From Octopus sinensis (Eukaryota), in NCBI RefSeq assembly GCF_006345805.1, contig NC_043001.1:52638001-52702000 (forward strand): 64,000 bases of DNA, read 5' to 3'. The notes under the pieces were generated by a model. That model did not search any database. It saw only the letters and a program-made list of their open reading frames with translations, and had not been told where the DNA came from. This document shows positions 16,633 to 59,760 of the stretch, piece by piece. A program made the translations under genes and the position numbers. The number at the start of each line of letters is the position of its first letter. Position 1 is the stretch's first letter.

Positions 16633-17774
16633 GAAAGAAGGTTTGAAAATGCAATTTAAAAGATGTTTATTTACTTTACCGGTTTCACTCTTTGGAAAAA
16701 GATTGTCAAAAGTAACATGTGGAAGTTTGGTTGCGTTAATTATTGGTTGTTGCAAATTGCTACATTACACACATATATATATATATACAGTCTTTGGTAA
16801 CAGGGACATGTTAAGGACATAAAAAAGTTCAACAAGTTCCTTAAAATATTGGGCACAAAAGATTACATAAATAATCGTTCTCAAGGACATACTTAGAAGA
16901 TGAAGAAAAAGAAGAAGACGAAGAAGTGGAGGAGGAAGAGAAGGAGGAGGGTAAGAAGAAAAGGGTAAACAAAAATTAAATGAAATAAAACCCAAAATAA
17001 TGATGATAGAATAAAGATTATAATGAAAATGAGATTAACAGTAATTGAGAACAGAAGGAGAAGGAGAGTTAATTACATCAAAGATAAAGGAACGGAACAA
17101 TTTTGGAGTGGTCAATATTGCTGTGAGTCGTCAAAATATAGCCAGTGGGGTGTCTAATGATTTGAGGTCGCCTGTTAGGTACTAGCATATGGTATCTTGT
17201 ATTATGTGTGTGTATATATATAATATATATATATATATATTATATATATATAATATCTATATATATATATAATATATATATATATATATTTAATCAAAAT
17301 AAGTAATAGGATATCGTGTAGTGATGCAGTACGACTGCTTCAAGCGGCTTCTTTTAATTGAGCAATTAAATGCAGGGCAATCCCCAGCTGCATTAATAAG
17401 TAAATATAATTTTTAATCAATTGGACATGTAAATATAATTTTACTGAATTGTCCTAATGGAGCAAGAAGACGGAAAGAGTCCATGTTTCCAGTAATTTAG
17501 ATAAGAGTTCTACGGATAATAACGCACTGATTTGGTGCTTCAACTTAAGTACCTAATTCATCTCAATCTGAATTGTATATATATATAGATATATATATAT
17601 ATATATTATATATATATATATTCAGCAAAAACAATTAAGATCCAAGTGAATTCCAATGAATTCAAATGAATATGGTACTTAAATTAGATGCATCAGAATT
17701 CATTTATGGTATTATCCATAAAATAATGTGGGGTGATTATAACCAAGAATAAAGCAACAAGAATGGATTAGTTG

Positions 17775-17863
17775 TTTGGTACAATTGTTTCATACTAAGA
17801 ACAATTTTATTTGAGTCTGCAAATATTGCAGCAAATACAAATGTCCAGTATTCATCAGCTAAA
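17775..17863 (-). ncRNA. Type I hammerhead ribozyme motif (minus-strand arm)
   Basis: tttag-CTGATGA-atact...agtat-GAAA-caattg-TA-ccaaa; one mismatch in stem I. Confidence 0.7.
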
Positions 17864-17955
17864 TCACATATATGTTTTCCAGACATCCTAGAGAGTTTGA
17901 TTATCCTCATGAGGATGATCAAACTCTCTAGGATGTCTGGAAAACATATATGTGA

Positions 17956-18043
17956 TTTAGCTGATGAATACTGGACATTTGTATTTGCTGCAAATTTGCA
18001 GCTTCAAATAAAATTGTTCTTAGTATGAAACAATTGTACTAAA
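17956..18043 (+). ncRNA. Type I hammerhead ribozyme motif (plus-strand arm)
   Basis: tttag-CTGATGA-atact ggaca...tgttct tagtat-GAAA-caattg-TA-ctaaa: perfect 5-bp stem I, long stem II, palindromic stem III ACAATTGT, GUA triplet. Confidence 0.85.
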
Positions 18044-18107
18044 CTACTAATCCATTCTTGTTACTTTTTTCTTGGTTATATATATATATATATATAATAT
18101 ATATATA

Positions 18108-18292
18108 GTGGAGGCGCAATGGCCTAGTGGTTAGAGCAGCGGATCACGGTTTCGATTCCCAGACCGGGCGTCGTGAGTGTTTATTGAGCTAAAACACCTT
18201 AAGCTCCACGAGAGCTTAAGGCAAGTGGTGGTGGCGATCCCTGCTGTACTCTTTCGCCACAACTTTCTCTCACTCTTTCTTCTGTTGGCCTT
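18108..18292 (+). mobile_element. tRNA-derived SINE family C
   Basis: ggcgcaatggcctagtggttagagc (box A) ...ggtttcgattccc (box B), followed by a non-tRNA body. Confidence 0.75.
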
Positions 18293-21163
18293 CTCGTGCT
18301 GGTTGCTCTGTATTTTTTACGCTATGGGCTTTTTGGGAGATGCGTGAAAGTTGTGCGGTATCTATTAAGTATCAGAGCTTTTATCCCTCTTTGTGATATA
18401 TGCTGTATAAGTGGCTTGGTCAGTAATCTTGCTACATCTACAACAAATGCAATCAAATTTATTTGTGATCTAGCAGTGTTTGGTACGAGGATTAGGACTG
18501 AATTAAAGTACACGCAAATGTTTATAGCTAATTTTCTCATAAAACACTGTGGTGATATCAACTATTTCTGAAATATTATGTATAAAGTTAGAGGATGGCA
18601 TCTTGCTTCGTCTGTGTGTTTGATAGTGAAATCAATGTGTTTATTAATATTATTGACTGTATCAAAAATACATTTAGAATAAGTATGTCACGTTCCTAAA
18701 TGTACACCGTATAATAGACAGTATGTTATTATGTACAAATGTAATTCTATTTATTAGAAATATTAAGAAAAGCGCTTTGAATCAAATGGTCTTGAATACT
18801 ATAGTTGAATACTATCATTTCTGATAACGTAACAAAAGTATTTCAAGAATAGTTTGCAAAGAATTTAAGAAACATTACAGCGATATGCACGTAAATAATC
18901 TGTAAAGAAACTAGCCGATATAATGAAGTTTTAGAATGCAATTTTAACGATATTATTTCTTGCAGATTTACAACGTGATTTTTATGACCTTTTAGAGTAT
19001 AAATTAATACGTAGGTAGTTACTAGCTGTAAATCTATGTCTATACATGAACAAAGTTTACAGTTATGAACTACAGTGTACTCTGAAAATGTAATTTATAT
19101 GACATTAATCTATGTAATTTTGATGACGGCATAATATGAAGATTCAAATGCAACTTTCGTATAATTAGAACTTTTAAAACAATACATTCTAAGTTATATA
19201 TCTATACGCCAATATTTGTGCAAGGAGACTTCATTAAACTTAGATATTTATTCGCAATACGAAGAAAAACATATAAAAGTGCATTCGTATGGGACTTGAG
19301 CATTAAGAGCAAATAATTGCATGCCAAATTCTATAATTATACGATAATATAGCGAACCAATTTCTAGGAAAGCATATAAATAACATACTGGGATACTTAC
19401 AGAAAATAATATAACGTCTGTATACGTCGACAATTCAACCGTAGAAAAAAATGTCTGATTTGATATTTAGTTACCGAATATGTTATCAGTTTATAAAAAT
19501 ATGATTAAGAAAAATATTGGAATATAAATTATCAAGTGATATGAAATATTCTGAAAATTATCTTCGAACGAGACAATAGCACACTGGTAAATCAAGTTAA
19601 TTACACAGCGATAGATATACAGTTGCGGCTACATAAATATATATTTATTCGTTTAGGTATCATTTTGACTAAACACCAACACAAATAAAATAGAAAGAAA
19701 TAATAATGAATACATTAACTGATATATATATATAAATTATCTAACAGATCTATAGCAGAAAATATGAAAAAATTAGATTATTTTTGAGATAATTGGTGTA
19801 AAAGTTGCAAAATACGAATCTAAATTAATTTGAGCGTAAAAACCTTATGTATATATATATTGAAGAGAAATATTCAAACAAAAACTAGTACAAAATACAC
19901 TAGAGTCACTTATAAGAGAACAAATATAGTTCATGTATGACTAAGTTTAGCATCTAAACTGCCTAGCATATCCTAATGGTGGTCTACCCTTGTGCACCTT
20001 CTTCACCACTCTGTATACGACCTGGGGGGTGATCCGTACCCTCTCATACCGCCGTTAAGTACATTACTGGAACTTCGTCCAACTTGGCCAGACATGAGAT
20101 AAATGGTTTCTTGTTGTCTTCTCCAGGAAGGTGGGATTTGAGTTTAGAATATTCAGAGCAGGAAGATATAACGGAAAGCACTTCTGCCTACACGGTAACC
20201 ATTTTGTCGCTCTCCCACCCGCAGAACAGTGTGAAAGGATATGTTTTGCTAACGAATTCAACTCAGTCGACTCTTCGAATCGAACCTACAATCTAGAGAT
20301 CGTGAGTGCAATGATATATCAACTAGGTCATGTGTTTTCACATCTAACCCGGAGACCAAAACTGGCAAGCGCATTGAAAAATTTTAATCGTTTTAATACC
20401 TATCTGCATTCACGTACAAGAGCTCAGTGTTATTTACAATTATATATGCATACATTATCTACTAGCATCATCTCAAGGAATGTATTTACCCTAAATATAT
20501 GTAGACATAAAAAGGAAACCAAATATTACAATGCTATATTAGAAGAATCTATGAAAAAATGATTACAAAAACTAATATTAATGCAAATATCTTAAGGTAA
20601 CGGGGGGAGGACTACTGTATTCAGAAAATAGCAATACCAAATTTATAGCGACTAGAGTGCTCAAGAGCTCTAAAACAAAAGACTGATACATAATATGGTA
20701 ATTTTTATTACAACATAGAATATGTGTAATTAGTCAAGTGTTTAAGTTAATAATTTTACAATCAAATGAAACTGGTCACTTTCGTAACATTGCCATGTTG
20801 ATCGCTTGTCTGATATAGCTAATGCGAAAGAAAACTTGCAAAGAATAGTTATTTGCGTAAGTCATTTATAAATTAATTCAAACCTTCGATCTTTCACTGC
20901 TGATATATTTGCTACAATCATATTTTCAGTTTTACTTATATATTGGAGCATATCGATTACAAGTGACACATGATCTAACCTTGATTATCATTTTTCATAC
21001 ATTTTAACTTTCTTCTATAAAGAAGATGGCTGCTCTACAGAGGTAACTGTAGAAGGAATTGTCAGCACCTCATTCCAACACTGTACTAGTTTAGCATATC
21101 ATGAATATTACTAGATATAAAATTACATACCTATGATTTTAATGTCTTTCATCGAATATTCGA

Positions 21164-21194
<31 letters not shown>

Positions 21195-21335
21195 ATTTAC
21201 TAATTATATATTATTTAGTACTTTATTTAGTTCTAGGTAAATGTTTTATCGTATCTTGAATTTTTTTTCTATATCGTATGATTTAAGTATATCATTGTTG
21301 AATTGCTTCATTGTGGTTCATCTCTAATTTTCTAT

Positions 21336-21426
<91 letters not shown>

Positions 21427-21543
21427 TATATATAATATATATATATATAATATGTATAAGGGTTAAAAGGAACACACGAGTTGATATATATGAAAAAACA
21501 AGTCAAAGTAGAAAATGCTAAAATAATTTTATAAAGAACATTT

Positions 21544-21581
21544 CAGTACCGGTTTCGGTCATTTTGAGACCTTTTCAACTG
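21544..21581 (-). ncRNA. Minimal type I hammerhead, U3-A8 core variant
   Basis: cag-TTGAAAA-ggtc tcaaaat gacc-GAAA-ccgg-TA-ctg; palindromic stem III ACCGGT; ~100 nt downstream the sequence runs into (TA)n. Confidence 0.65.
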
Positions 21582-27386: not shown

Positions 27387-30127
27387 TATATATATATACA
27401 TTAACATCATAAGAGTTTAGAAACTTTGTGAGAGAATGTAAACTAAAATACTCCATTACAACACTACTTTCATATTTTGAAATACAGCTTTTAGGAAGGT
27501 ACATAATATCTTTTACATATCCTGTGCTAGCTAAGACCTAGTTGTAGTATGAAGCCTTCCCACTAAATATTACCCCTTTAAACGAATGCATCTGTATCCA
27601 GAGTAGAAACACTGTGTACCACTGATTACAGCTCGAGTGAAATTTGAGAGGTGATTTACATATATTGTATGCTAGTGGGGTTTATACTAATGGCCGCTGT
27701 GAAGTTCCAACTTAACATCCAGGCAATTGTCTGTTGTACGATTAGTAAGATATGTGACGGACATAGCTACACATTTGAAGAATTTAAACATTCGTTCCCT
27801 AAAATACTCATTGCTCGCATAGTTACACTTTTGGACTGTGAACAGTGTGTCGCCCCTATATCGATCCCTGTCCAGGCCGGGAAATTCTTTCTTAATGCAG
27901 TATCATGTGCATATTTGCTGAAGATCGGTGACCGGCACTTCCGGCATTCAACTTCTATAGAAATATACTTGTTCGATAACTATGATAGTAATGCTAGCAT
28001 GCACCACAACACTTAATACTATTCAATACTTAACAAGATTCAACCGTACGAAATTGAACTACCTATCTAATGGTTATATAACCTCTGATGGTTCTAGTCT
28101 TACACGTACGTCTAAGTATTTATGCAACCACATAATTGCACCAATGTAAAATAACCAGAGTAGTAACGCACTAATTATTAATAATAGTACTACACCTAAG
28201 AATATCCCCATACTGAAGATAAAGAACGATGATTCTTCTATCTAAAGAATTTTTACCCCGGTGAAAAATGTGTAAAAAAATCAAATGTTAAACAAATGTT
28301 AAAAGATATCAAATGTTAAATCTACCTTCAATCACAAAACAGGTTTATAGTTATACATGAGAATAATTCTACTTTATTAACTTGGTATCCATGTTGCTGA
28401 TAGAAATATTGAATATGAAATTGCTTGGTCGATTGCTTGGATACCACGTTACACTATGGGGATTGAAATGCTAAGTGTGAGTTGTGCATATCTGAAATTT
28501 ATGAATCCATTAGTTGTAAATCGAATCTTATTCGCCAAGGTGATAATATAATAGTTAGATGTCCGCTCATGTACAGTATGTCTTTCCAGCACACTACGTG
28601 TAACTAACCTATTAGCTATTGCGTGGGTTACACCAGCGTTTTGTTTGTTGTGTAACATTAAGCGCTCTAGATTTTTCTCACTTTTGTTGCTTTTATTTTT
28701 ACGTTATATATTTATTATTCTTTTATCCTTTCTTTCTACCATGATTGAATTCTCCCTGCTCTGCGGTTGCATAATTGATGTTAGTCTGACTCTTAAATTT
28801 TAAATTTTAACTCACTTATCTTAATTACCTTAATTGCTTTGAGTACTATAAATAACTCCAACTTAGAATACTGATGTCCTGTCCGATCACTATATTTACT
28901 AAAATTATCAATACTTGTTAATTATTAATAAAAGTCTTCCCCACAAACATCGCCTGTATTTTCACTCTTTGGTCATATACTAGTGCGTTTGAGTTGCTGC
29001 CTAATACTGTTATTGTTATACTCTGGAAGTCTAATCGATATGATAAATAACCTTGATTTCTATAGAATATAGTCTATATATTCTTCCATTCGGCTATTCA
29101 TATTAATATGAGTATAATGCCCAGAACTTATTAACCTGATCAAATTATATGTTCAAACTACTTTCTAGGTCTACATTCTTAGTTATCACTCAATAATGTG
29201 TGACCGAAATCTATAAGCTTGGTCTAATGTAATTTTCTCCTTATTCGCTTTAATCTTTGCTTTTTAATCGTTATATAGATTATACGTAGGCATGGTTATC
29301 ACATATAATAGAAACTTTATAATTGGTTATATACATTTGTTGGGCAGAAGTAATCGTATACGCATGTCTGAATGTATTCTTGTGGTCGGCAAATTTATTA
29401 TAGTGCTCCGCATGTTTCGACTATACGTGTTTATGTTTATCAATATATGCGTATATGTGTGTACATGTGTATATATCTACAACACATGTAAGTATATAAA
29501 CAGATGTGTCTTCTTATATGAAAGTATATTGATTTTGGCTAGATTCGTTATGTGAATATGTGTATGTATGAGTGCATATGCTTGCGTAAATGTACGTGTG
29601 TGTGAATATCACAGGAGTGTTTTTTGAACCACTCTTGTGTGGCGGTTCTTGGCGGCGAAAGAACCAGAAGCGCGGTGACAGACAATCCGATAGCGATCAA
29701 CGCTGGGCAGACATTAAGTTCTTACACGTTTTTCTATAAGAGGAATTTTTTTCTTTATGGTAACTGCAGTGAATTTGCCTTTAGGAGTTGAAATATGTCA
29801 CAAACACATTTTAACTAACCTTGGCTCTGATGCAGGTGTGTGTGTGTGTGTATGCGCACGCGCTTGTGTGCGTGCATGTGTGTGTGTGTGTGGGGGGGTG
29901 TTTATGTGTTCGTGTATGTACAAATTCATAAAGTTGTCAAAACCAAAACGATATACTGTTGACAGTTAATGAATTAAGATTTCAATTCATGTATATGCTT
30001 TGCGCGCTCTTTGTTTTGTGCAGATATTGTTTTATGCTTTGAATTTCTTAAAAGTAATAGGAAATACAGCAAAAATTTTATCAGTGTGTTCTATGCACCC
30101 AAAACCTTTACAATTGACACATGCAAG

Positions 30128-31500: not shown

Positions 31501-32109
31501 ATGGTATGATTATTTCCATATTCAATTTTCCCCTTTTTCGTTTCTATGCTCTTCTTCTTCTTTATTTATTTTTCACTCTGATGAAGTTCCATGCTTCAGA
31601 TCGGTTTTATTACCAAATATGATAAATATCTTTAGCATATAAATGGCAATACCATACAACATTGGAATCAGAAACAACTGTTAATTGGGATCCAGTCTAT
31701 TTGAATTAAATTAATAAATAATAATTGATGTAAGTCAATTGTTTTTCATCAATATTTCTTCATTTTCTGTTTTCACTATATAAAAGTATATATATGTCTA
31801 TATTAACAAAAACGTGGTGTAAATAAACATACGGATATATACTAAATGCACAGACGACCGTGAAACACATTAAGTCACCAACATCTCTGTAGTTGTTGGT
31901 CAGGTTTTATGAAATGATACAGGATCACACCTGCGCCAGTCCACCGAACGCACACACCATCAGCTTCTTTTGATGAATTTTGCTTTTAGGACTGTGTTTT
32001 GGTCGCCCATATTTGTCCATTCATTGTGCGGAATGTTTACGGTTGTTCCATTGGTAAGTCAACTGTTGTTCATCAATATTTCTTCATTTTCTGATTTCAC
32101 TATATAAAA

Positions 32110-32151
<42 letters not shown>

Positions 32152-32152
32152 T

Positions 32153-32790
32153 ATATACCAATTAAGGACTGAACACGAAAAGTGGACAGTCAACATGCTA
32201 GATATAGACGTCAAATCGCCATTCACCACAAAAGATTATGTTCTCAGATCAAACTCAACACAAAACCATAGCAATAAACAAGTGAAAAATATACGAAATA
32301 AAATAATTACCCATGTACTAAATTAGTTTCAGCTGTTATTTTCCGCAAGGAAAACTGCAGCCATCATCAGCATGGTCCGTTATAAATGTAATTTGATGGA
32401 CTAGATGCAAACACGATACCGAAATATCGCGTGCATGGAGTTCAGCCTATTACATTAGAATATATCTTTCAAATGCCTCTACTTTGGCGCGTTGCAGTTT
32501 TCCTTGCGGAAAATAACAGCTGAAACTAATTTAGTACATGGGTAATTATTTTATTTCGTATATTTTTCACTTGTTTATTGCTATGGTTTTGTGTTGAGTT
32601 TGATCTGAGAACATAATCTTTTGTGGTGAATGGCGATTTGACGTCTATATCTAGCATGTTGACTGTCCACTTTTCGTGTTCAGTCCTTAATTGGTATATA
32701 TAAATATTTTAATCTTCGGATTCTTTTTTAATATGCTAGACCACTGGTCTTAATTGATAAATATCAATTTCTACCCTTAATTAATTTTAT
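32153..32790. mobile_element. Fold-back PLE-terminus element, copy 1
   Basis: ~205-bp perfect inverted arms 32153-32359 / 32493-32699, 133-bp spacer, ~90-bp tail ending atcaatttctacccttaattaattttat(at)n; flanked by (TA)n. Confidence 0.85.
32311..32375 (-). ncRNA. Type I hammerhead ribozyme motif
   Basis: ccatg-CTGATGA-t ggctg cagttttcc ttgc ggaaaataa cagct-GAAA-cta att tag-TA-catgg. Confidence 0.8.
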
Positions 32791-32828: not shown

Positions 32829-33463
32829 ATATACCAATTAAGGACTGAACACGAAAAGTGGACAGTCAACATGCTAGATATAGACGTCAAATCGCCATTC
32901 ACCACAAAAGATTATGTTCTCAGATCAAACTCAACACAAAACCATAGCAATAAACAAGTGAAAAATATACGAAATAAAATAATTACCCATGTACTAAATT
33001 AGTTTCAGCTGTTATTTTCCGCAAGGAAAACTGCAGCCATCATCAGCATGGTCCGTTATAAATGTAATTTGATGGACTAGATGCAAACACGATACCGAAA
33101 TATCGCGTGCATGGAGTTCAGCCTATTACATTAGAATATATCTTTCAAATGCCTCTACTTTGGCGCGTTGCAGTTTTCCTTGCGGAAAATAACAGCTGAA
33201 ACTAATTTAGTACATGGGTAATTATTTTATTTCGTATATTTTTCACTTGTTTATTGCTATGGTTTTGTGTTGAGTTTGATCTGAGAACATAATCTTTTGT
33301 GGTGAATGGCGATTTGACGTCTATATCTAGCATGTTGACTGTCCACTTTTCGTGTTCAGTCCTTAATTGGTATATATAAATATTTTAATCTTCGGATTCT
33401 TTTTTAATATGCTAGACCACTGGTCTTAATTGATAAATATCAATTTCTACCCTTAATTAATTT

Positions 33464-33466
<3 letters not shown>
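32829..33466. mobile_element. Fold-back PLE-terminus element, copy 2 (tandem, period 676)
   Basis: Appears identical to 32153-32790. Confidence 0.85.
32987..33051 (-). ncRNA. Type I hammerhead ribozyme motif (second tandem copy)
   Basis: Identical to 32311-32375. Confidence 0.8.
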
Positions 33467-33494
<28 letters not shown>

Positions 33495-33543
33495 GATAAT
33501 ATATATATATATATATATATATATACATTATATATATATATAC

Positions 33544-33628
<85 letters not shown>

Positions 33629-35419: not shown

Positions 35420-35885
35420 TCAATCTAGTGTCGGCGGGGGTCCTCCAATTTGATAAAAGAAACCTGTCCATGTGTCTGCAGCTGCTAAACTTTCAGATCT
35501 CGAATTAAGTAGTGTTTTAGAATTACTGGATCGAAAAAGAATATGTGATCTTTCTGCTCCACATAAGTTGCATTTCTTAGATCCATTAACACATGACTTG
35601 GATCTATACACTATTCTCCACTTAATTGTATGTGGTGCGGAGCTGCTTTTCACATTCCATACAGGGCTAGCCAAATTAGTTGCATTGGGTTTACCGATGT
35701 GGCTGAAAGAAGTTGTTTTGCATAACGTCGCTTGAAATAATCATCACATAGCCCGATGTAACACTTCTTTTCAACTGATTTGTCTTGGAGCGTAGCTATC
35801 ACTTCAACCTCATATAAGATGACGTTTATCATACATGCCTGGGTGAGTGGGAAAACCTTAGGTTCTCGACAGTTATAATTTTCTT
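35420..35885 (-). pseudogene. PLE GIY-YIG endonuclease remnant
   Basis: VILYEVEV...CYIGLCDDYFKRRY, then IKWRIV...KKCNLCGAE..HIL...LLNSRSE; same architecture as the EN at 57640-58048. Confidence 0.8.
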
Positions 35886-37446
35886 CATGTCAGTGCATCA
35901 ACTGTATAACTTTATTGAGCGTCTCTTAAAAATCTTCCTGTATTTATCGACAAACGTTTATCTATAAGATACAGATATTGTAGGAAATTAAAGAAGTAAT
36001 GTTGATAAATAAAAACTGATTGGACAGACAGGTGACAGACACATAAAGGCCGAGAAAATAAGATATTGCCATTATATCCGTGTTTTGTTGTGTTTTGCTT
36101 TGCTTTTTTCTAATTCACACTTCTCAAAACCTTTCTTGTAGTGATTTAGGTTTCTTGTGATGTTGTATTAACGGTTTTCGTTAGTGGAATCGAATAAAGC
36201 GGTCTTGTGTGTCTGAATGGACATTTGTTGCTATAAAGGTCTTGCACTTAACATTTAGTGTTATGCCTGAATTACAGTAGAGACGCAAACATCTTACAAT
36301 TTATTGCAAATATGGCAAATATGTTAAACCCAAGCTAGCTATAGAGGAATCCTAGATGCTGTCATTACAAGAGCTAGAACTAACAACCATTCTCATTCGT
36401 GTCATTCCCAGACTTCCCCTAAATACAATGATGCGTTAAATAAACAGAACGAGCTATTAACTGAACGTGATTGACACTAATTCACATAAAGAGAAATACG
36501 CACATACACAAACTCACACGCACACAAGCAGGCACACACACACACATACACACAGGGAGAATAAAACGTAAACGTACAGGTCCTTATAAGATTTTAACTA
36601 AGGACCTGTACCTTCATGGAAGTACCGACCTACATCCATACCCTCTGGAAAAAGATGAGCTGTGAACATAATTCTCCCGCCCGTATTCTACTTTACTATT
36701 TATTCTTCTATATACTCCTTTATTCTTCTATGTTGTTCCTTATAAACTGTGAATATATTTTATTCCTTGTAAACTGTAAATTTTCCTTATCTAAAATATT
36801 CATACCTTGTCTCTGATGACGGAACACCAAGTGGACATACTAACATACCACTTGGGTTAACCCAGAAACAGTTGAAAAGCTTCAAATTCCCCTTACCCTA
36901 ATAAAATTGTTTACATCATTTGAGATACTCGTTCTGCCTTGATATTGCCTTTTCCTCTAATGTAATATATACCCGCTATAACGGAACCCTAATACGGATT
37001 CCTAGATCCAATCTCAACTGTGAACTTGGAACCTAACGGACGACCAACTTTAGCACTTACTCAGCGTACCTTTACGTTTAGACAACAAGTCAACTAAACC
37101 CGCATATTTTTACACACACACACACACACACACACATACACACGCATACACACACAAACACAAACATACTCACAAACAAGCACACACACATACATATAAA
37201 TATGTAAATGTATGGCTATACATGTAAGCGCGTGTGCATGAGTGTATAAATGTGTGTGTGTGTATTTGCATACAGATGTCATAGAAGAATTTTCATCGCT
37301 GTTTGTACAGGACGATATGGTAAGATAAAATAATCTTACTTAACCTAACATAAACTTGTTTTAGGTTGATCCTTGATTTCATATCTCTACAATTAATAAT
37401 ATGAATAATAGTGGTTTAAATGAAAATAAAATAGTTGTAGCATATA

Positions 37447-38421: not shown

Positions 38422-39909
38422 AAAGAAGTAAAAGAAGTAAAAAGAAAAGAAAAAAGACTCAATTTCAACAACCGAATGCCAGATTGAACATCCATCATAT
38501 CGATGTATTTACAAGTAAATAAATAGCCAGTGATGTCGCAAAAAGCTCTTAGGTTGTGTTGAAATTAGTTATTACCGATGGAATCAGCCTTTGTAACGGC
38601 TATTAACTTGTACATCCAACTCAACTTGAATGAGTTATTTTGAAGACCGAAGACAACAGTAATTGCCCTCAAAGATCATAACGTATAGACGTTCTGAGGC
38701 GATTTACATATAGTAAATGCTCGTTGAGCTTATGATACTACCTATAATAGCCAGTGTGAAATTCCAATATAACATACAAGCAGTTGAATATTTTATGATT
38801 ACTAATAAATATTGTGGACATATCTGCACTTTTGATATATCTAAACAATTATTTCCTATAACTCTATTTAATATACTTTGAGACTACAAACAGTGCGTCA
38901 CTCCTATATAGACTATATAGACATATCACCATGCAATCTTTTTTCTATAATAAGAAACGCGAAATTCTACCTGTCTGTCCGTCTGTCCTTTCGTCTGTCT
39001 CTCCCTTCGTCCGTCCGAGACCTCTGTATCTCAATCTACATTTGTTCTACATATACATATTACCCTATTATGAAATCAAGACGATCCCAGAATTAAAAAT
39101 CTGCCCTTCATTTGGATCGAGAACTTTTAGCATTTGGATCAGGTCTAGAAGAGGATTTGTTATATGCTAACATTTAAAAATTCAAATTTTAAAAGAACTC
39201 CAAAAATATGTGAATTTATAAGTTTTTTTTCATTTAAACTGAATTTATAGTGATACCATATTAGTAGGTATTTAATGCCAAATTGGTATGGTAACAATGA
39301 ATGCTTTATTAATTTTGTTCTTTCCATTTTTGACCCACAGGTTCAATCAGCCCTCCACTAATAGACAAATCAATTTACATTAGAATTCCATATACTCGTA
39401 CCAACATTATATCAATAAGAGGCAAAACACGTCGCAGATATGGAGAAAAGATACTGAGTGCATATACCATCTGAATTGAACTTCAAATGTCCGCCTTAGT
39501 CTTCTCAGAAGGAGAATGATGGATAATTTTAATATTTCTATTTCGTTTTTCCCCTTCTTCATTATATTTTACTGACGTATCTTATAATGAACACACTAAT
39601 CTGCGTATACTAATTTGAAATAAGATAAAGACTTGTCTGGTGTACATAAACATAAGAAATCTATTTATGGTCAATTTATATCAGAAAATATGAAATATTA
39701 AATATATTTAATTAAAGATATTAAGTTACTGCGTTGGTATGGATTAACAGTTAGAGAGTTCAATATTTTATTACTAAGTAGTCTATTCAGATTATTGCTT
39801 TCATTCTAATTTAAGGAAAGAAAGGTAAGGAAGAAAGCAAAATTTCGGAGAGAATAAAGATAATGATAGGATATAATGCAATTCAAGAAATTATACAAAG
39901 CAAAATAAA

Positions 39910-44868: not shown

Positions 44869-45871
44869 GCATACATATATAAATACATAAAAAGTCATTT
44901 AAAATTATTTAATTAGGGTAAGGTGAATCTTACAGCCTTTTCTGGGATAACACAAGTGGTAGGTTAGTATGTCCACGCCCTGGGTATTCTGTCATCAGAG
45001 ACATGGTGATGAATATTCTCGACATGGAAGTTTACAGTTTACAAGGAATAAAATTCACAGTTTATAAGGAATGAAATAAAAGTATAAAGGAGTGAATTGA
45101 AGAACAAAATGTTCTGGTAGCCAGACGAATATAGGCAAGAGAATAATGTTCAGTACTCATCTTTTTCCAGAAGATATGGATGTTGGTCAGTACTTCCATG
45201 AAAAATCAGGTCCTTAGTTTAAAACCAAGGTAAATCGAGGTGGTATTGTGGCAGCATTTTAAATGATTTATTCATTTGTAAATGTGTATGTTGAGCGAGA
45301 AAGTAAGATAGACATAAATGGGTTTTGTGAGTGGGTGTAAATAGAAGAGAAAGGAGGAAGACAGGAAAGAGAGAGAGAGAGAGAGGAGAAAGTGAGAGAG
45401 GAGAGGGAGAGGAGAAAGAGAGACAGGAGAGAGGAGAAAGGAATTAAGGTAACAGTAGAATGTGGGGTAAAGGGGCAAAATAAGAATAAAATTAAAAATA
45501 AAAGTAAAGTAAAGGTAACTATCGAAATACGTCTGTATAGCATTGGGCTAAGAGGTCAAACGTTAAAGTTTCAGTAAAGAGGGAGTAGAAGGCCACTCTA
45601 GCTAAGGTTGCAAAGAGCAATAGTATAGTGGTTTGTACGGATATTTAAAATTATATTTCATGCTTAATAGCAATTAAACGATACGAGATAAAGGATTAAG
45701 GATTAAAGTGAAAACCTAAAATTCCCAACGCAGAAAAATAAAACCTAAAGTTACAAAAACTAAAAATTATCCAATTGAAACTAGCTAGCTTCTAAGATAC
45801 TTATGTTGATAGAGAGGTAGAGGAAAAAGAAAGCGTACACATACGCACACACACACACAAACATATATATA

Positions 45872-46957
45872 TATTAAAGATTAAAGGTTGAATGTTTTAT
45901 ATATATACATATATGGATGTATGTGTCTATCAACATCTATATTAATATATATATGAGGGGATCAATTATTTAATACATATTTTCCTTAGCTTAAATTCGT
46001 TGTACACTGGAAATACACTTGGTACTTTACAGTATTCTCCGATATAATGATTCAGTGATAATGTTTACCTTGCTAAAGCATTGGACTCAGTTGTGTTATT
46101 AAGAGTTTAAGGCAGTCACATCTGATTGTCGTTGCTTGTGTCTTATATTAATCATGTTCATTGAGATGGTTTTTAAAGCATTCCAAAATTCCTTTAAAAT
46201 ATCATGATTTTGACCCACACTTGAGATATATGCAAGAACGTTCGGAGGATTTGAAAATGACGATCATCCCTTATGGATATATATATATATATATATACAT
46301 ACATAGATACACGTACATATACACATATACATGAATATATACATATATATATATATATACATATATATTTGTATGTATGTATGAATGTATGTATGTATGT
46401 ATGTATGTATGTATGTATGTATGTATGTATATTGCAACGACCATGGATGGAAGTTATTATGCGTGTTGAATTTGTTTGCATTTGGATATATGGAAGAATG
46501 TAAAGGTGTGATAGAACCTATCACATGTAGAAAAATCTTCTTGTTTATTTAGTAATTGTGGTGAATTATGCATTAATATATAGAAGGTTTCTTTTAGGCA
46601 TAATCTACAAGTGGATCGTTAGCGTTGGTATGGGAACAGGAATCTATTATGGCCTAAGATATCCTTTCATTTTATTAGATGATTTACCTAGAGAGGCAGA
46701 TTTGCTATACTACTCGTACTTAAATGAGTTTATATGCGCCAAATATCTCCGTTTAACATTAACAGTAGAACCGATATAATAGTTAGTAGAATTATGCAAT
46801 ATGTTGTGGACCGTGTATTTTTATACTACGTTAAACCTTCTGCAGTGGGCTCTCAATAGGCGTTCGAGTGTTATTAGTGGAAAGGTAAGATGTAGTACTA
46901 TTTATAGAGAAATTAAAATTAAAGGTGTTATTAGGGATTGGCTCTTATTATTATTGA

Positions 46958-46997: not shown

Positions 46998-47728
46998 AGT
47001 TCTAGTAGTGATGATACTATTATTTTTAATCATATTATTATTAGCATTAGTGGTGGTAGAGGTCGCATGAGGGTTATTAATATTAGTGTTTGTGGTGGTG
47101 TTATAAGTATCAACATTCGCCTCAGCTACATTTCGGCCTTCATAGGAAGCGTGTGTCTAGCGCTAGGATTGCAGGTGAAGTATATGCCATCGATATCGGT
47201 ATTTGTGCTTTCGTGACTTTGGCATATGATTATATATATTCAGGTAGTAGAAAAAAGTTTACGTTTATTGGAAGAGGGAACAATAGATTATATATTGGGC
47301 GGAGAAGAGTAGAATATTTTAAGGTCATGTCTATTAAAGATTAAAGGTTGAATGTTTTATATATATATACATATATGGATGTATGTGTCTATCAATATCT
47401 ATATTAATATATATATGAGGGGATCAATTATTTAATACATATTTTCCTTAGCTTAAATTCGTTGTACACTGGAAATACAGTTGGTACTTTACAGTATTCT
47501 CCGATATAATGATTCAGTGATAATGTTTACCTTGCTAAAGCATTAGACTCAGTTGTGTTATTAAGAGTTTAAGGCAGTCACATCTGATTGTCGTTGCTTG
47601 TGTCTTATATTAATCATGTTCATTGAGATGGTTTTTAAAGCATTCCAAAATTCCTTTAAAATATCATGATTTTGACCCACACTTGAGATATATGCAAGAA
47701 CGTTCGAAGGATTTGAAAATGACGATCA
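45872..47728 (+). repeat. ~395-bp direct duplication (45872-46266 / 47332-47728)
   Basis: About 4 substitutions and one TA-unit difference by eye. Confidence 0.9.
46432..47345 (-). pseudogene. Decayed PLE linker/EN fragment
   Basis: FNRHDLKIFYSSPPNI matches the FNR..K.SYS..PN motif (cf. 57080-57135), followed by an (AAT)-rich linker and TCDRFY...YPNANKFNT (EN-like). Confidence 0.55.
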
Positions 47729-47828: not shown

Positions 47829-47896
47829 TTCAAGTTGTGTAACCTTAGTTACTAAAGACATCGATGTCTTTAGTAACTAGGGTTACACAACTTGAA
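47829..47896. repeat. 68-bp spacerless palindrome
   Basis: ttcaagttgtgtaaccttagttactaaagacatc|gatgtctttagtaactagggttacacaacttgaa, one mismatch. Confidence 0.95.
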
Positions 47897-50079: not shown

Positions 50080-50492
50080 CACACACAACACACACACACA
50101 CACAGAAACACAACATATATATAGTTAAACCAAACATGAAAACACAAAGAGAAAACACAACAACGCGAGGACGTGGAACAAGTATAGTATTATTGGACAC
50201 TCAGGAAAGAAGGAAAGATGTTTCAAGCGGAGCGCTTCGTCAGAAACATAGGAAAAGGAAAGATCCAAAGAAGAGAAGACGGAGGAAAAAAATCGCCAAC
50301 GGTACACACGCGGTCACATTTTGAAAATATATATATATATATATAAACATATATAAAGTACGTGGGTTTATTTCACAGGTGGGCTAAACAACTACGTACG
50401 CTAATACATTCTGTAACGAATTGCAAGGGTTCCAAGGCTATAGCCGCGACAGTAGTTTTAAAGCCAGTGTAGATTTCCGATGTAGCGGATAT

Positions 50493-51789
50493 ATAATTGT
50501 TAAAGAGGTCAAGAAATGTTAAGGCAAGTAAATATCTCAAGTAATATACGTTGCTATTATTGGAAAATTTCAGTTTTACACCTCTCTCTGGGATATGGCA
50601 GGTGTATGGGTTATTCCGTCATCGGAGACAAAAAGGGAGAAGGAGAATGGTAAAGAGTAATGAAATGACGACACAGAGGGCAGGAGAAAAGGAATAAGGA
50701 GAAGAAGAAAGAGAAGATAAAAGAAGCTTAAAAAGTACACACATCTCAACTTCCCGATCATGTAGAAGTAGGACTTATGTGCAGTAATCCTGTGTAAATC
50801 CACGTAGGATGAAGTCCTAATAGTGTAACTTTCCAGAAATAGACACGAACGTATCAACTTTCAGTAGCAGAATGGCAGAGGATGTGGCTATTAAATTGCA
50901 AGAAGAAAGAAAAATATATAAATAGAAAGTGACATAGAGAGAGTGAGGGAGGAAATTAAGAACTAGCACTAAGAATAAAATAAGGTATATAAGGTCGTAG
51001 TCTATCAGAATAACCAAGAAGATAAATAAAGAAATAAATATATAAGGGTAAATAAGAAGGGAGGAGAAGAAGTTAAAGGAATATAATTTTTTAAAATGGT
51101 AAAAGAAAGGAATTCAAAGCGAATAGTGGGTACAGACTAGAAGAATTCCGCCGGCACCCAGTATTCTCTTTGAATACCTTTCATTTTACTATTTTGTAGT
51201 TTTTTAAAAAATTATCTCCCTTTAACTTCTCCTCCTCTCACCTTATTTACCCTTCTATATCTATTTTTATATATACTATATTCTTATACACTATATCCTT
51301 ATTTTCTCCTTAGTACCAATCCTTGATTTCCTCCCTCACTCTCTCTGCCTCTCATTTCATATATTTATTTTTCTTTCTTCTTTCCATTTAATAACCACCG
51401 CCGATACCATTCTGTTATTGAACGTTGATACGTTCGCATCCATTTCTGGATATTTACACTATTAGGAATTTAACCGACATGCATTTATACAGGATTGCAC
51501 CTAAGGAGTTACGGACTTACTTCTACATGATCAGAAAGTTGAAGTGTGAACATTTATGTCTTTTTTCTTTCTTTCTCCATCTCCTAATTCAATTTCTTCT
51601 GTCCTATGTATCGTAATTTCATTACTCTATACTCTTTTCATTTTCCTTATTTTTCCCCAATAACGGAATATCCCATTCTCTGGGATATCCCAGAGAGAGC
51701 TGTAGGACTGAATTTTTCCAATAATAATAACGTATATGACTTGAGATATTTGTCTTGACTTAACGTTTGTTGTCATCTTTAACAATTAT
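50493..51789. mobile_element. Old ~650-bp-arm inverted repeat, PLE-terminus-like
   Basis: Arms 50493-51132 / 51153-51789 are clearly homologous but diverged (both translate IRSxxFL..YTIR..LxRI..YFYMI.KL.C); each arm has a decayed HHR-like tract near its outer end. Confidence 0.75.
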
Positions 51790-51935: not shown

Positions 51936-51992
<57 letters not shown>

Positions 51993-53951: not shown

Positions 53952-54078
53952 CTTCTTTTGTATTCTAGGCACATGGCCCGAAATTTTGGAGGAGGGTGCC
54001 AGTCGATGTGATCGACCCCAGTAAGCAACTGGTACTTAATTCATCGACCCCGAAAAGATGAAAGACACAGTCGACCTT
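53952..54078 (-). mobile_element. SINE family A 3' fragment
   Basis: ggcccgaaatttt...aactggtacttaattcatcgaccccgaaaagatgaaag. Confidence 0.8.
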
Positions 54079-55500
54079 GACCAATATCTACGACAGTAAT
54101 TCCTATCAGGACAAACTATCGCAGCACACAAGTATAAGAACTCCATGCCCAGAACAAAAACAAAATAATGCAAACAAATTGACCACTCAGCGATTTGCCC
54201 AAATGACAGATGGAAGGGAGAAAAACATCCAAAAGATGCCACTGAAGAGTAACGTCCCTTGATTCATTGCTTTATTCACTGGAATTCACGAAGATACCCT
54301 ACGAACGAAACGAAGCTCTGTTTCCAAATTGTAGGTGAACACCTTTCTCCATATCTTGTATAGTGAAACTGTATACACCTCTGGTAAAAAGTGATAGGAA
54401 TCAGCCATTATAAATAGAGCAGTAGCCGGTTGTCAAGAGAGGATCAAGAATCGAAGAGTTGAGAGTCGATAGTTATAGTGGTTGTGGAGCTATCAGTGAT
54501 ACTAAGACGGAAGAAATTAGTGTATTATTATTCCGGTACGGAGCGATACAACGGTATCCGATTCTTAATGATCTAGGGGAAATCTTGCATGGTGCACTGG
54601 ATTTTATTCTGTTTTCAACAGTTCCCAATTTCTTATATATTTGAATAAATGAAGATATGGAATACAAAGGGTCTCTGATATTTTCCTGTAACTTTTTCCT
54701 GCTTTCAATTGTTCAATATTTAAGTTTTTCACTGTATTTATGAGTTCTTTACTTTTCGCCATTATTACAATACTACTTTATGGTGTCTCAGTGCTGAATG
54801 AAGAAGCTAGCGTTTTGACACTTAGAAATGACAACTGATAAGATTATTGGAACAAACGAGAAGGTTCTAGTAAAAAAAAATTATTTTAACAGTGCTTTGT
54901 GGCATAGAAAATCATAAATTTATTCTGTATGAATACTCCCACCCCTAAATATTTATGATTGTATATAAATTCCTTAATTACTATAATTTATTAGTTTCTT
55001 TTGCATATTCTTAGTTTATGCATCTGTCTGCAAATATAGTACAGATGTATCCAATTTATGTTCATTAGAAATTAAATAAATAAAGAATTTTGTCTTTTAC
55101 GAATATTTATTTCCCTCCACTGTATATGTAGGTATGTACATATATATATGTATATATGTATATATGCATATATTCATATATTATTTATATTATCATATGA
55201 TCGAACGCCACGCATCCTTTTCCAAGTAAGTTTTATATTAATAATTACGATGCGCACTCTTGTATCTCTACTATCTCTTCTCTGTCAATCTCCCTCCCTC
55301 TCTTGTTCTTCCTTTCTGTTTTTTTCTCCCACCCTTCACTATTCTTCTCCTCCCCTGTTCATCGTACTATCTCTCTCTCTCACTCTTCCTCCTTGACTCT
55401 GTCGTAACGAAAGGGAACCAATCTCTCTCTCTCTCTCTCTTCTCTATATATATATATATATATATATATACGAGAAAAAAGCAACAAGAATGGATTAGTT

Positions 55501-55591
55501 TTTCAGTACGATTGTTTCATACGAAGACAAGCTTTATTAAAAGCTGCAAATATTGCAGCAAATACAAGTGTCCCGTACTCATCAGCCAAAA
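55501..55591 (-). ncRNA. Type I hammerhead motif in the inverted 5' pLTR
   Basis: ttttgg-CTGATGA-gtacg...cgtat-GAAA-caatcg-TA-ctgaaa. Confidence 0.7.
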
Positions 55592-55670
55592 CACATATGA
55601 GTTCTCCAAGCATTCTAGTGGGTGAGGCTACACTCATGAAATATCGGAGATAGCTCTATAAAAAGCAAAC

Positions 55671-58049
55671 CCACTCCTAGAGAATTTCGAAAAAGATTTA
55701 CTGAATCTTATAGAAGATATTAAATTCAAGGAACACCCGTTAAGATACAACCCTCACCTCAAACATCTCAGTAACTTTATTCATTCAACCCGGAATAAAC
55801 AAGGAATCTTAGTACCAGCGGATAAAACTGGTAATCTGTATAGAGTAGATTACACTCTTTATAGCAAGAAGGAACTCAACTCCAAATATAAAATTACTAC
55901 TAAGAAAAATTTGAAAAAAATATGGAAAGATACAATTTAACAGATAGAACGGAGCCGCTAAAACTGTGTAAACCTAGAATCAACCTTAAAGACCACAAAA
56001 GGAATTTCATGGAAAACCCTTCGGTAAGGCTTATTTGTCCAATTAAGTCAGACATTGGCCGGCTTAGTAAATCTATCCTTGATACTGTTCTACCCCAAAT
56101 AACCCCTTTTCTTCCCTTAAGTCTATGGCTAAATACCGATGAGGTATTAAAATGGTTTAACTCTCTAACTAATACTAGTAGTCTGTCCTTTATTCAGTTC
56201 GACATAAATAATTATTACTCTAGTATTTCCCCTATTTTGCTAAATAAATCACTTATATTTGCTAAGAATCGCTCCCTCATATCTAGAGAGGAAATCGACA
56301 TTGTGCTATTAGATAGAAAACATTTATTGAATTTGAAGAAAAGTTATGGACTAATACACCTAATAATTTCGATATACCCATGGGTTCCGGTGATTCAGCT
56401 GAGGTGACTAACTTGGTAGGCGCGTATCTATTAAAATGCATAAATAAGGAGATCCCAGAATTACAAGGTGGTCTATATAGGGATGATGCTCTGTTTGTTA
56501 TCCCTAGTAATAATAAATCTAGCATTGAAAGGATTAGAAAGAAAATTAATAAGTTCTTTAAGGATTTCAACCTTAGCATAGCGTATGAACCTGGCACTAA
56601 AATAGTCAATTTCCTAGATATTACATTATACCTTAACTCTAAGCTGCATTACCCATTTAGAAAGGAAGGTGAAATCACGAGATACGTAAATAAATTATTC
56701 AATCATCCCCCAAATATAATTAAATCTTTGGTCGGAAATATTTCCTTAAGAATCTCTAAATTATCATCCAATAATGATATATTTAACTCTAATTTTGAGC
56801 ATTATAATGCGGCGTTATCTAATGCAGGATACAACCAAAAGATTACCTTTATTGATTAGGAGAGCTTACATATTCCTAATAAAGAAGGTATTAGTAACCA
56901 CGTAAACAACAATATAGACCACGCCCGAAATAAAAGTAGAAATAGATTTACGGTCACTACAAATCTAACGTACAAGCCTAATCATACAAATAAAAACATA
57001 GACCAGAGCGATTCTATCGGATATACAAAGCAAATTCAAAGTAATTCGAGAAAAAATTTCCCAGCCTCTCATAGATATCATAGAATTATTTCTAAGAAAG
57101 CGGTTAGTATTTCTTTTTCAACCCTCCCAAATATGTCCACTTTAATATTAATAGCTAAGATTAATAATAATAACATTAAGCTAGCCAGGAAAGATAAAAA
57201 TAATACCAACATGAATACCAATAACAATTGTAATAATACTATAAAAAATAAAAGCAATAACCGCAACAATAGTAACTATCAAAACATAGGTAGAATCAAT
57301 AACCATGGAATAACTAATAATAATATTAATATTAATAGGAGTAATAATGTTAATAATATGAGTAATGCTAATAGAGAAAATACCGTGAATGAAGACAACA
57401 TTGATATCTATAACAACAATATACGTTCGGATACAAATAATAGCAATAATAGTAACAATACCAATAATGTAGGTAATCATGGTAGGACTATATAACTAAA
57501 TGATAGTGTAAAAGGATCGATAAATGATAACACTGCTTTAGATAACAACATTAACTATAATAACGATAAATATACTCATGATAATCAGAATAGCAAGAAC
57601 ATGGGACATCTATCCATAAATAATTCAACATCTGAAGATGTTCCCCCTAGGTGTAATTGCAGCATTAGGTCAAAATGCCCGGCAACTGGTCTGTGCGGGG
57701 TAAATAACGTAATCTATAAATGTACCATAACTATTGAGAATAGCAAATTTCTTTATTTAGGTTGTACTATAAATTTTAGGAAAAGAGTTAGCAATCATAT
57801 CTCCTCTTTTAAATTACGTCATAAAGCTGGTACCACCACACTTTCAAGTAAGATCTGGGAACTCAAAAATAATAATATTAAATATAACATTAATTGGGAA
57901 ATATTTAGAAGAGCGATGCCTTATAGAAATAACAGGGTTGGTTGCCAGCTCTGCTCCATGGAGACGTATGAAATTCTAATGCATACAAAAATAGGAATTT
58001 GTTAAATAACCGTATAGAACTGGGTCAATCTTGTATTCATGCAAAATGA
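55671..58049 (+). pseudogene. PLE polyprotein: reverse transcriptase, Asn-rich linker, Cys-rich GIY-YIG endonuclease (frameshifts and stops)
   Basis: LENFEKDL, VPADKTGNLY, FIQFDINNYYSSI, MGSGDSAEV, GGLYRDDAL, VNFLDITL, NHPPNIIK; EN CNCSIRSKCPATGLC..NVIYKC...YLGCT..FRKRVSNH...CQLC..E....LN.R.E...SCIH. Confidence 0.92.
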
Positions 58050-59169
58050 AGACTCTAAAATATTTTAAATAAAAATAGTATAGAATAATCGTATGGAGAT
58101 AGATCTATCTTGCTTTTACTAATAAAACAAAACTCTAATATTTTTAAATAGATAACTGCGAGCTCTTACACTATGGTTATTTCTTTCTTTCTAACTGCAC
58201 CTGATTTGGAACATAAAGAAATTTATAGTATTTGTACGTTGCCTAATTGACTATGTAGTTATTTTAATTTAATCTAATTTTAATCTAATTTAGGTAATAC
58301 AACTTAAATCAAATAAGTTACTAATACTTCATAATTCTATTATAAAGTTAAATAAGTAATGCTACTCCCTTAAAAGTAGTATAAGAAAGTTCAATATGAT
58401 AAGCAATTCTCTCACAACTTGTAATTGACCTCTAAGTATAGACCTACAGACTGTCATTGTATAAACAGTAACAATAATAAATAAATTAATTAAATGACCT
58501 CCTTTCTAGTATTGCACTTAATTCTCTTAATGTATTTTCCTCTAGTGATAGCCTTTGACCCCTTTATCCCTTCCCTTGTTCTCTTTAGATTCTTATATCT
58601 GCTTTAGCTCCGTGGGATTGGCAATTAACAGCTGTATACTGGTCAAAAGTAATGTTCTCCTTTATAAATCTTAGATTCCTGCAAATTCTAAGCCAGACTG
58701 TCTGTCTCCACAGAAAGAGACCTTTCTGTGTAGGTGGGTACCTGCGACCCCTTCCCTCTCAGTTATCCCAGAATACTCTATCTGGGCGGTTTTTCTATGC
58801 TCCACAAAATTCCCTCAGCCATTATAATTCTAACATAGCAGTTTTGTGAAATGAACAGAAGTGTGACAATTATCTTATCATATATCAGGAAATTATACCT
58901 ACCTTATTGTGGATTAATCATGGATAGATTCATCGTCTGTGAGTATGAAATATCTCCTCATATCTCCGGTAATTTGCATCTACATTATGGATGGATTCAT
59001 CTTCTCTGTGAAGCTAACAAGCTTTTTTAAAAACTGTTATTAGACTGTGCAACATCATTAGAGAACTTTGGAAGTCTGCTTACAACCTAAATTTGCTTTT
59101 TATAGAAATATCTCCGATACTTCATGAGTGTAGCCTCACCCACTAGGATGCTTGGAAAACTCATATGTG

Positions 59170-59260
59170 TTTTGGCTGATGAGTACGGGACACTTGTATT
59201 TGCTGCAATATTTGCAGCTTTTAATAAAGCTTGTCTTCGTATGAAACAATTGTACTGAAA
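59170..59260 (+). ncRNA. Type I hammerhead ribozyme in the 3' pLTR
   Basis: ttttgg-CTGATGA-gtacg ggaca...tgtctt cgtat-GAAA-caattg-TA-ctgaaa. Confidence 0.8.
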
Positions 59261-59430
59261 AACTAATCCATTCTTGTTGCTTTTTTCTCGTTTATAATCA
59301 CCCCACATTATTGAATGGTTAATACCATATAGTTTTTCTGGTGCATCTAAGTTAAGTACAGCATTCAAGTGAATTCAATAGAACTCACTTGAATCTTATT
59401 GCTTTTACTATATATATATATATATATATA

Positions 59431-59760
59431 TACAAAATTTAGTGGATTGACCACTAAAATTGGACAGCCTAGATATAGACGTCAAAATCGCCATTTTCCA
59501 CAGAGAATGTATTCTCAAGAAAACAATTCAGCGGAAACCAAAGCGTATTTTTACGCTTTGGTTTTTTGCTGAATTGTTTTCTTGAGAATACATTCTCTGT
59601 GGAAACTGGCGATTTAGACGTCTATATCTAGCATACAGGCTGTCCAATTTTAGTGGTCAATCCTCTAAATTTTGTATGTAAAAAGTCTTAATCTTCGGAT
59701 TTTTTAAATATGCTAGGCCACTGGTTTTAATTATCAATTTCTACCCTTATTTAATTTTAT
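59431..59760. mobile_element. Short fold-back element of the 32.2-kb family (no HHR retained)
   Basis: Hairpin arms 59431-59547 / 59552-59676; shares ctagatatagacgtcaaa.tcgccat and the tail aatcttcggatt..atgctag.ccactggt..atcaatttctaccctta with 32153-32790. Confidence 0.85.

Follow-up and report, generated by a model that had tools for sequence, protein, structure and literature searches.

Hairpin elements at (TA)n runs of Octopus sinensis as probable one-off insertions of Penelope-like elements

Insertions of Penelope-like elements (PLEs) typically show an inverted 5'-truncated copy and a one-sided tail, as described in PMC8557442, PMC3846280 and PMC8969392, and the formation of these inverted repeats and tails is named an open question in PMC8557442. 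In vitro, a purified PLE protein cleaves the two strands of the target and extends each of them; in the same account reverse transcription begins at two internal RNA sites, the spacing of which equals the tail, and hammerhead cleavage is not required (PMC11167929). Published tails are typically 30–40 bp long, a length that is not a requirement (PMC8557442, PMC3846280, PMC11167929). Here a set of short hairpin elements, some of them with hammerhead ribozymes in their arms, is described in a 64-kb stretch of Octopus sinensis DNA on contig NC_043001.1, hereafter the window.

The hairpins are probably one-off, dead-on-arrival, 5'-truncated insertions of several (TA)n-targeting PLE families, the hairpin being formed anew at each insertion. 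A sequence-only reading of the same DNA had proposed an independent class of ribozyme elements resembling miniature inverted-repeat transposable elements (MITEs). That proposal is not supported: the inner junctions are unique in both family pairs of the window (2/2), and the hammerhead is absent, cut or predicted to be unfoldable.

Anatomy of the hairpin elements

All coordinates are positions within the window, and the elements E17, E32a/b, E50, E55, E59 and E63 are named after their approximate positions in kb. The element map, drawn up by comparing the window with itself and by reading the sequence directly, revealed one plan, (TA)n–inverted arm–interior–direct arm–tail–(TA)n, in E17, E32, E50, E55 and E59, and an inverted 5'-truncated copy at the 5' end with a one-sided tail in all six elements (6/6). 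The arms of E17 and E55 are portions of a pseudo-long terminal repeat (pLTR). Self-comparison confirmed the range of interiors first described (approximately 3.4 kb, 133 bp, 4 nt or none): the interior is 0 in E17, 133 bp in E32 and 4 nt in E59, and in E55 it extends over approximately 3420 bp, with regions for reverse transcriptase (RT) and endonuclease (EN). The tails measure 122 bp in E17, 95 bp in E32, 118 bp in E55, 83 bp in E59, 151 bp in E50 and 73 bp in E63, so that the 90–120 bp given earlier has to be replaced by 73–151 bp.

17576–17620, no strand: (TA)n target, tail side of E17
17621–17742, minus strand: E17 tail, family A, 122 bp, starting TTATAA
17743–17909, minus strand: E17 direct arm, 3' part of the pLTR; hammerhead core at 17858, with a stem I mismatch
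17910–18075, plus strand: E17 inverted arm; centre the palindrome TCA/TGA, present too at 59122 in the E55 pLTR
18076–18106, no strand: (TA)n target, inverted-arm side of E17
31727–31903, plus strand: paralogous empty site for E32, no insert
32111–32157, no strand: (TA)n target, inverted-arm side of E32a
32158–32359, minus strand: E32a inverted arm, family B, 202 bp, 100% complementary to the direct arm
32360–32492, minus strand: E32a interior, 133 bp, continuous with the inverted arm; carries the 5' half of the hammerhead
32493–32694, plus strand: E32a direct arm, 202 bp, cut within hammerhead stem II at TGCA
32695–32789, plus strand: E32a tail, 95 bp, starting TATATATA
32834–33465, plus strand: E32b, tandem copy of E32a; hammerhead 33046–32992 on the minus strand
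33466–33618, no strand: long interrupted (TA)n past E32b
50345–51786, minus strand: E50, old hairpin of a third family, no hammerhead match; tail 50345–50495 (151 bp, starting TATATA), arms 50496–51786
55445–55470, no strand: (TA)13 target, inverted-arm side of E55
55471–55669, minus strand: E55 inverted arm, 199 bp; hammerhead 55585–55507
59092–59290, plus strand: E55 direct arm, 3' pLTR; hammerhead 59176–59254
59291–59408, plus strand: E55 tail, 118 bp, starting TTTATAA
59409–59432, no strand: (TA)12 common to the end of E55 and the start of E59
59433–59674, plus strand: E59 hairpin, family B, 4-nt loop, no hammerhead; arms 59433–59547 and 59552–59674
59675–59757, plus strand: E59 tail, 83 bp, starting TATGTA, followed by (TA)6 at 59758–59769
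63033–63604 and 63605–64000 (window end), minus strand: E63, a further family, arm plus tail in tandem; membership uncertain

Family A comprises E17 and E55, and family B comprises E32 and E59. In blastn comparison A and B share no alignment better than E = 0.83, in line with the earlier claim of two unrelated families with one architecture. Runs of at least five TA units flank both sides of a random segment of the same length with a frequency of 3e-5 to 2e-4, and the empty paralogous site of E32 has matching flanks around a short TA run only. E32b, an adjacent tandem copy, is identical to E32a at 632/632 bases. Two regions had been put forward as older members. E50, with arms of approximately 650 bp that are 76% alike and a decayed TA/CA run as the flank on the inverted-arm side, follows the same plan, but E63, an arm with a 73-bp tail, lacks a long (TA)n flank and a hammerhead match. 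The tandem copies of E63 are alike at 395/398 positions (one mismatch and two single-base gaps). An isolated 31-bp exact match to the end of the E63 tail lies at 10740–10770.

The coding region of E55 and the hammerhead ribozymes

The interior of E55 holds the remains of a PLE open reading frame (ORF):

55670–56859, plus strand: Penelope-like RT, 5'-truncated and frameshifted, Hydra type, with DKT and YRDD motifs
56860–57650, plus strand: Asn-rich linker from RT to endonuclease
57652–58050, plus strand: CxCX5C linker and GIY-YIG endonuclease with CxxC and CxH, frameshifted near the end

The Hydra clade of PLEs is defined in PMC8557442 by DKT, CxCX5C, CxxC and CxH motifs and the absence of CCHH, and (TA)n insertion and hammerheads are stated for it. 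In the supplement of that paper Hydra-1_Obim, from Octopus bimaculoides, is entered as hammerhead-bearing and as preferring (TA)n, and for one family a 5'-truncated, inverted copy is recorded at the 5' end. Motifs compared by eye match E55, and with it family A, to the definition of this clade: the DKG motif is altered to DKT (LVPADKTGNLY), the linker reads CNCSIRSKC, and the endonuclease has no CCHH, a single C between IY and YLG, CQLC before the E and, in a shifted frame, CIH after the N. The copy is truncated downstream of the position of the N-terminal RWK motif; insertion at (TA)n and a hammerhead in the pLTR are also found. Pfam matches are weak and below the cut-off (RVT_1, E = 0.0092; GIY-YIG, E = 0.0032). 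A homologue search retrieved 4 proteins out of 895 candidates, the top two being from Octopus sinensis (84% and 52% identity), and protein P0004 shares 32–41% identity with E55 across RT and EN. The Asn-rich stretch at 56860–57650 was found too in the Octopus sinensis homologues P0001 and P0002; comparable inserts, rich in Asn and lying between RT and EN, have been described for Penelope elements of rotifers (PMC3846280).

The earlier proposal that the arms are hammerhead-bearing pLTRs of a (TA)n-targeting PLE thus stands for family A. The architecture points to a PLE origin for family B, E50 and E63 also, and in family B the hammerhead adds to this indication. Further PLE coding sequence, in the form of RT and GIY-YIG remnants on the minus strand, lies at 27487–28016, 35486–35886 and 38702–38914; no link from these remnants to family B, E50 or E63 was found.

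Hydra-like loci in metagenome contigs (73 in total) were compared. Within 650 bp of the ORF end, a run of at least four TA units was present in 30 of the 58 loci having at least 150 bp downstream; 17 of those 30 have a hammerhead core ahead of the TA run, and the full hammerhead descriptor was passed by 10 of the 73. An inverted pLTR around the ORF was found in none of the 73, an uninformative result given that short-read contigs are likely to lose such repeats; the inverted repeats that do occur in these loci were rejected as other elements or fold-backs at contig ends. The family A DNA pattern had 0 matches in the metagenome contigs. MITE-like, DNA-type hairpin repeats with TTAA or TA ends lie near Hydra-like ORFs at L039:2862-3047, L044:3-176, L072:1-126 and L073:3907-5160, and in L073 a PLE fragment is situated between both arms of such a repeat.

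Hammerheads were located with a type I descriptor of our own that permits a long stem II and one unpaired base; a narrower first version (stem II window of 60 nt, no bulge) had matched nothing and was widened afterwards. The descriptor matched five sites in the window (17961+, 59176+, 55585-, 33046- and 32370-); 100 shuffled controls averaged 0.16 matches and never had more than 2. The hammerheads first noticed at 17.6, 32–33 and 55–59 kb were thereby recovered and, as also noticed then, E59 at 59.4 kb has none by this descriptor. Two of the matches, not delimited above, are as follows:

17961–18038, plus strand: type I hammerhead of E17, core to cleavage site, with a 59-nt stem II and a palindromic CAATTG stem III
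32316–32370, minus strand: type I hammerhead of E32a, with one unpaired U ahead of stem II; complete only over interior plus inverted arm

The left arm of E17 misses the descriptor through its stem I mismatch. In family A, stem II spans 59–60 nt and stem III is the palindrome CAATTG; across four arms from the two elements, 95% of cells pair, versus 28–47% for slid partners. In family B an unpaired base precedes stem II, a feature described for PLE hammerheads (PMC4209133), and the complete hammerhead of E32 lies solely on the strand opposite the tail, the direct arm beginning inside stem II. Among the Rfam matches listed (150 of 184 rows) there was no hammerhead. Neither Rfam nor a descriptor limited to 60 nt picks up the long-stem-II form, and the number of PLE hammerheads may therefore be underestimated.

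The arms stand head to head, so that the antisense arm is transcribed first on either strand. The predicted cost of forcing the hammerhead fold rises from 0.7–12.8 kcal/mol in four isolated arms to 67–113 kcal/mol in three whole-hairpin transcripts; for whole E32 the predicted stem probability is 0.0 and the penalty 67 kcal/mol. These predictions suggest that the hammerhead is a passenger of the pLTR that would not fold, and would be inactive, within the hairpin.

A relaxed scan for the hammerhead core gave 0 matches in E50 and E63, and likewise 0 matches at 6.9–7.5, 9.4–10.0, 36.5–37.0 and 44.9–45.3 kb. A decayed hammerhead-like stretch with a long stem II lies at 31578–31690, just upstream of the duplicated 175-bp unit that holds the E32 insertion. 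Two copies of another repeat (36592–36907 and 44907–45223; 77% alike) combine a CTGATGA core with a GAAA that lies far from it, close to the 3' end; one of the two ends at a (TA)n run, and both fail the descriptor. These are likely to be decayed pLTRs of another PLE family.

Origin of the hairpins

The boundary between arm and tail has a recurrent sequence. TATA occurs within the first six tail bases in 4 of 6 elements, compared with 3.5% of positions in the same sequences, and the broader motif TAT[AG] in 5 of 6, compared with 5.1%. In the three metagenome loci where an upstream tandem copy reveals the underlying sequence (L002, L010 and L020), TATA coincides with the 3' end or is no more than 3 nt away from it (3/3). 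The hairpin centres are TCATGA in E17 and CGTA/TACG in E59, and the direct arm of E32 starts with TGCA; palindrome centres of the TCATGA kind occur at 5 of 199 positions in the related pLTR.

An insertion process that would yield such hairpins can be outlined. The GIY-YIG endonuclease would cut both strands of a (TA)n run, as we infer from PMC11167929. Because (TA)n is self-complementary, both cut 3' ends would read ...TATA, and each could prime reverse transcription on the element RNA, the first at the tail end and the second presumably at the TATA-like site, a motif observed 73–151 nt upstream. Two complementary DNAs (cDNAs) of the same sense would then copy one pLTR and halt at variable points; being of the same sense, they could pair only at self-complementary words, and would be joined via a short palindrome or microhomology, namely TCATGA in E17, CGTA/TACG in E59 and TGCA in E32. 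Insertions made in this way would have constant outer ends, carry a tail on one side alone, start out with two identical arms and enclose an interior that may have any length and lie in either orientation, all of which the elements show or are consistent with. We regard it as an evenly balanced proposition that, in Hydra PLEs, TATA homology lets both target strands prime, each at its own fixed site on the RNA; this would explain the tails and the inverted pLTRs together.

A possible though doubtful alternative is that a single tail-primed cDNA folds back at a palindrome, copies itself as far as the internal TATA and anneals to the upstream (TA)n. This route accounts for the TATA boundary and fits E17, E59 and E50: E17 is centred on TCATGA, which is found in the related pLTR, and the centre of E59 forms a 4-bp stem with a 4-nt loop. 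It predicts an interior in direct orientation, however, whereas the interior of E32 is continuous with the inverted arm. The inverted copy of E32 is longer than the direct copy and so cannot be produced directly by fold-back of one cDNA; a later one-sided deletion would be needed, although the arms are still 100% alike. A strand switch in one public contig, at 59093/59127 and described below, may resemble the E32 case.

The outer ends of the elements lie at homologous positions in both the family A and the family B pair (2/2), and the inner junctions differ, giving four distinct inner junctions in four dispersed elements. Arms are 95.7–100% identical within an element versus 79.5–83% between elements, as expected if both arms were copied from one template at each insertion. 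Junctions and arm clustering together speak against movement of the hairpins as units and, coming from a small sample, are suggestive only. According to that rival account, which we consider improbable, the hairpins form a non-autonomous class that moves as an RNA unit, MITE- or retrozyme-like and possibly circular, with PLE enzymes supplied in trans. Non-autonomous PLE derivatives are known to exist, and pLTRs are reported to be sufficient in cis for mobilisation in trans (PMC3846280). Apart from the four junctions, the state of the hammerhead argues against it: missing from E59, cut on the tail strand of E32 and subject to the predicted penalty of 67–113 kcal/mol.

Public contig sets bear on the same question. 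Four of 24 listed runs (X1, X2, X3 and X7) were aligned to 57600–59575 at 80% identity, each set containing at most 0.43 of the sampled words. Contigs run into (TA)n behind the arm end at 59296 (30 in X3 and 9 in X7), which confirms a fixed arm end at TA targets elsewhere. Unit movement finds little in these data: among the matches listed for 57600–59575 no position has many contig ends, a weak test in that perfect palindromes are likely to break contigs and that 623 further loose ends and 5887 further pieces accompany those listed; the four listed loose ends within the pLTR match the reverse strand no better than the forward; and the depths of contigs at the E59 centre, a weak indication, are near the lowest listed (39–52 in X1/X3 and approximately 8 in X2/X7). 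Joints at 59523–59524 and 59572–59575 were rejected as new junctions, as they mirror the cut of the reference through E59. At 59092–59105 a pyrimidine tract is followed by AG, resembling a splice acceptor, and the E55 inverted arm and one X1 contig both stop just before it; this end at 59092–59093 is possibly a preferred cDNA stop or an RNA end.

Recurrent hairpin centres, earlier taken as the sign of unit transposition, were found within the window only in E32a/b, the adjacent identical tandem copy. This pair speaks for unit movement in that it is an exact head-to-tail dimer with two minus-strand hammerheads 676 nt apart, and it formally has the two units by which retrozymes are recognised in bioRxiv 10.64898/2026.07.22.740005. 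A narrower proposal, which we judge very improbable, is that some units (the 676-nt E32 repeat, with a 202-bp perfect duplex and one hammerhead each) are transcribed in tandem, cut to a rod-like, viroid-shaped monomer or circle and re-inserted as complete hairpins by a TA-targeting PLE; re-inserted E32-type units would then constitute a hairpin class of animal retrozyme. The most fitting reading of the E32a/b pair is that it was duplicated locally between TA runs or arose in assembly.

Extending such an explanation to the hairpins themselves, as assembly artefacts or later DNA rearrangements (palindromes at breaks, unequal exchange between TA runs), has hardly any likelihood. Both exact tandem pairs, E32a/b and E63, sit on hairpins, and the differences between the E63 copies resemble long-read error. 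The arms of E17, E59 and E50 have nevertheless diverged by 4–24% and are thus old, independent public runs show the (TA)n arm end again, and each of the four has contigs at the E59 hairpin. Artefact or rearrangement is plausible for the tandem duplications only.

Several observations weigh against the origin from separate PLE insertions preferred here. No ORF with RT and GIY-YIG linked to family B, E50 or E63 was found. Each family has two members that are approximately 80% alike and perhaps belong to different subfamilies, in which case unique junctions and arm clustering would be expected under either model. E32a/b repeats one junction exactly, and the contig-end test that found no accumulation was weak, as noted. 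In one X1 contig the strand changes at 59093/59127, a single base away from where the E55 inverted arm ends on its inner side (59092), and this may hint at a preferred stop. The tail of E63 does not start with TATA, and this element also lacks the long (TA)n flank. Initiation of reverse transcription in PMC11167929 occurs without target homology, the tails here are 2–5 times the published 30–40 bp, and covariation in the hammerhead was not above that of shuffles (one two-sided change; 463/500).

Other repeats were noticed in the window. An inverted pair at 6957–7454 and 9488–9978 is 98.6% identical and encloses approximately 2 kb, with an older 68% copy at 8591–9054; as a member (7.0–7.5/9.5–10.0 kb) it was rejected, its arm end having neither a TA flank nor a TATA boundary. 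One frame of this pair region reads IVHQEYIPQDPTFNLECY, which we take to resemble a mariner transposase motif. A near-perfect palindrome of 68 bp (97%) with the centre ATCGAT occupies 47829–47896, and a direct repeat of approximately 397 bp (45872–46266 and 47332–47728) is 98.5% identical, its copies 1.46 kb apart.

Comparison with known systems

The window offers a worked example of PLEs scattering perfect hairpins through a cephalopod genome. Such hairpins could feed the production of small interfering RNAs (siRNAs), which are described from inverted Penelope copies in Drosophila (PMC3681739), and they are open to mis-annotation as MITEs or microRNA precursors; E32 itself scores as a MIR family in Rfam, below the cut-off. 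The loci also yield a rule open to testing, in which two TATA-like sites for priming lie downstream of the hammerhead and joining takes place at short palindromes.

In LINE-1 twin priming the second target strand primes internally, and the resulting 5' inversion is joined by microhomology. The octopus cDNAs would differ in covering the same stretch, which gives an inverted duplication with a fixed outer end.

Canonical PLE insertions resemble the octopus elements in the 5' inverted copy, one-sided tail, heavy 5' truncation, microsatellite bias and two fixed RT starts (PMC8557442, PMC3846280, PMC11167929). They differ in their tails, which are 30–40 bp rather than 73–151 bp, and in the depth of truncation, which in the octopus hairpins can leave only the pLTR. 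The internal site in octopus resembles the (TA)n target, whereas the anole PLE initiates without homology (PMC11167929). With the Hydra clade the likeness is that of a C-terminal EN+ Penelope-like element, of which an Octopus member is already published (PMC8557442); E55 exceeds the usual size of <3 kb through its Asn-rich linker and a 1-kb 3' region, and family A stem II encloses 59–60 nt, whereas that of Hydra-1_oBim is 7 bp with an 8-nt loop.

Non-LTR retrozymes are likewise short and non-coding, with a type I hammerhead derived from PLE pLTRs, and E32a/b shares their head-to-tail arrangement (PMC7229834, bioRxiv 10.64898/2026.07.22.740005); the relevant text of PMC7229834 makes no mention of cephalopods. 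Retrozymes are direct tandem repeats with a foldable ribozyme, however, whereas in octopus the ribozyme sits in a long inverted repeat that is predicted to trap it. Tandem units that each have a hammerhead are seen in E32a/b only, perhaps through local duplication, the other copies being single. MITEs are similarly short and non-coding, with long inverted repeats at TA-rich sites (PMC8969392). The octopus arms, by contrast, are not terminal, a 73–151-bp tail lying outside one arm; the copies within the window are non-uniform (four junctions in four elements); and the related enzyme is an RT with GIY-YIG, not a DDE transposase.

A literature search, with older PLE reviews and Repbase reports outside its scope, returned no paper on unit-transposing PLE hairpins or on two-site priming by TATA homology. 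Neither the PLE architecture nor the occurrence of Hydra PLEs in octopus is new (PMC8557442, PMC3846280, PMC11167929); modestly new beside these are the tails of 73–151 bp, the hammerhead with a stem II of approximately 60 nt and the TATA-like boundary between arm and tail.

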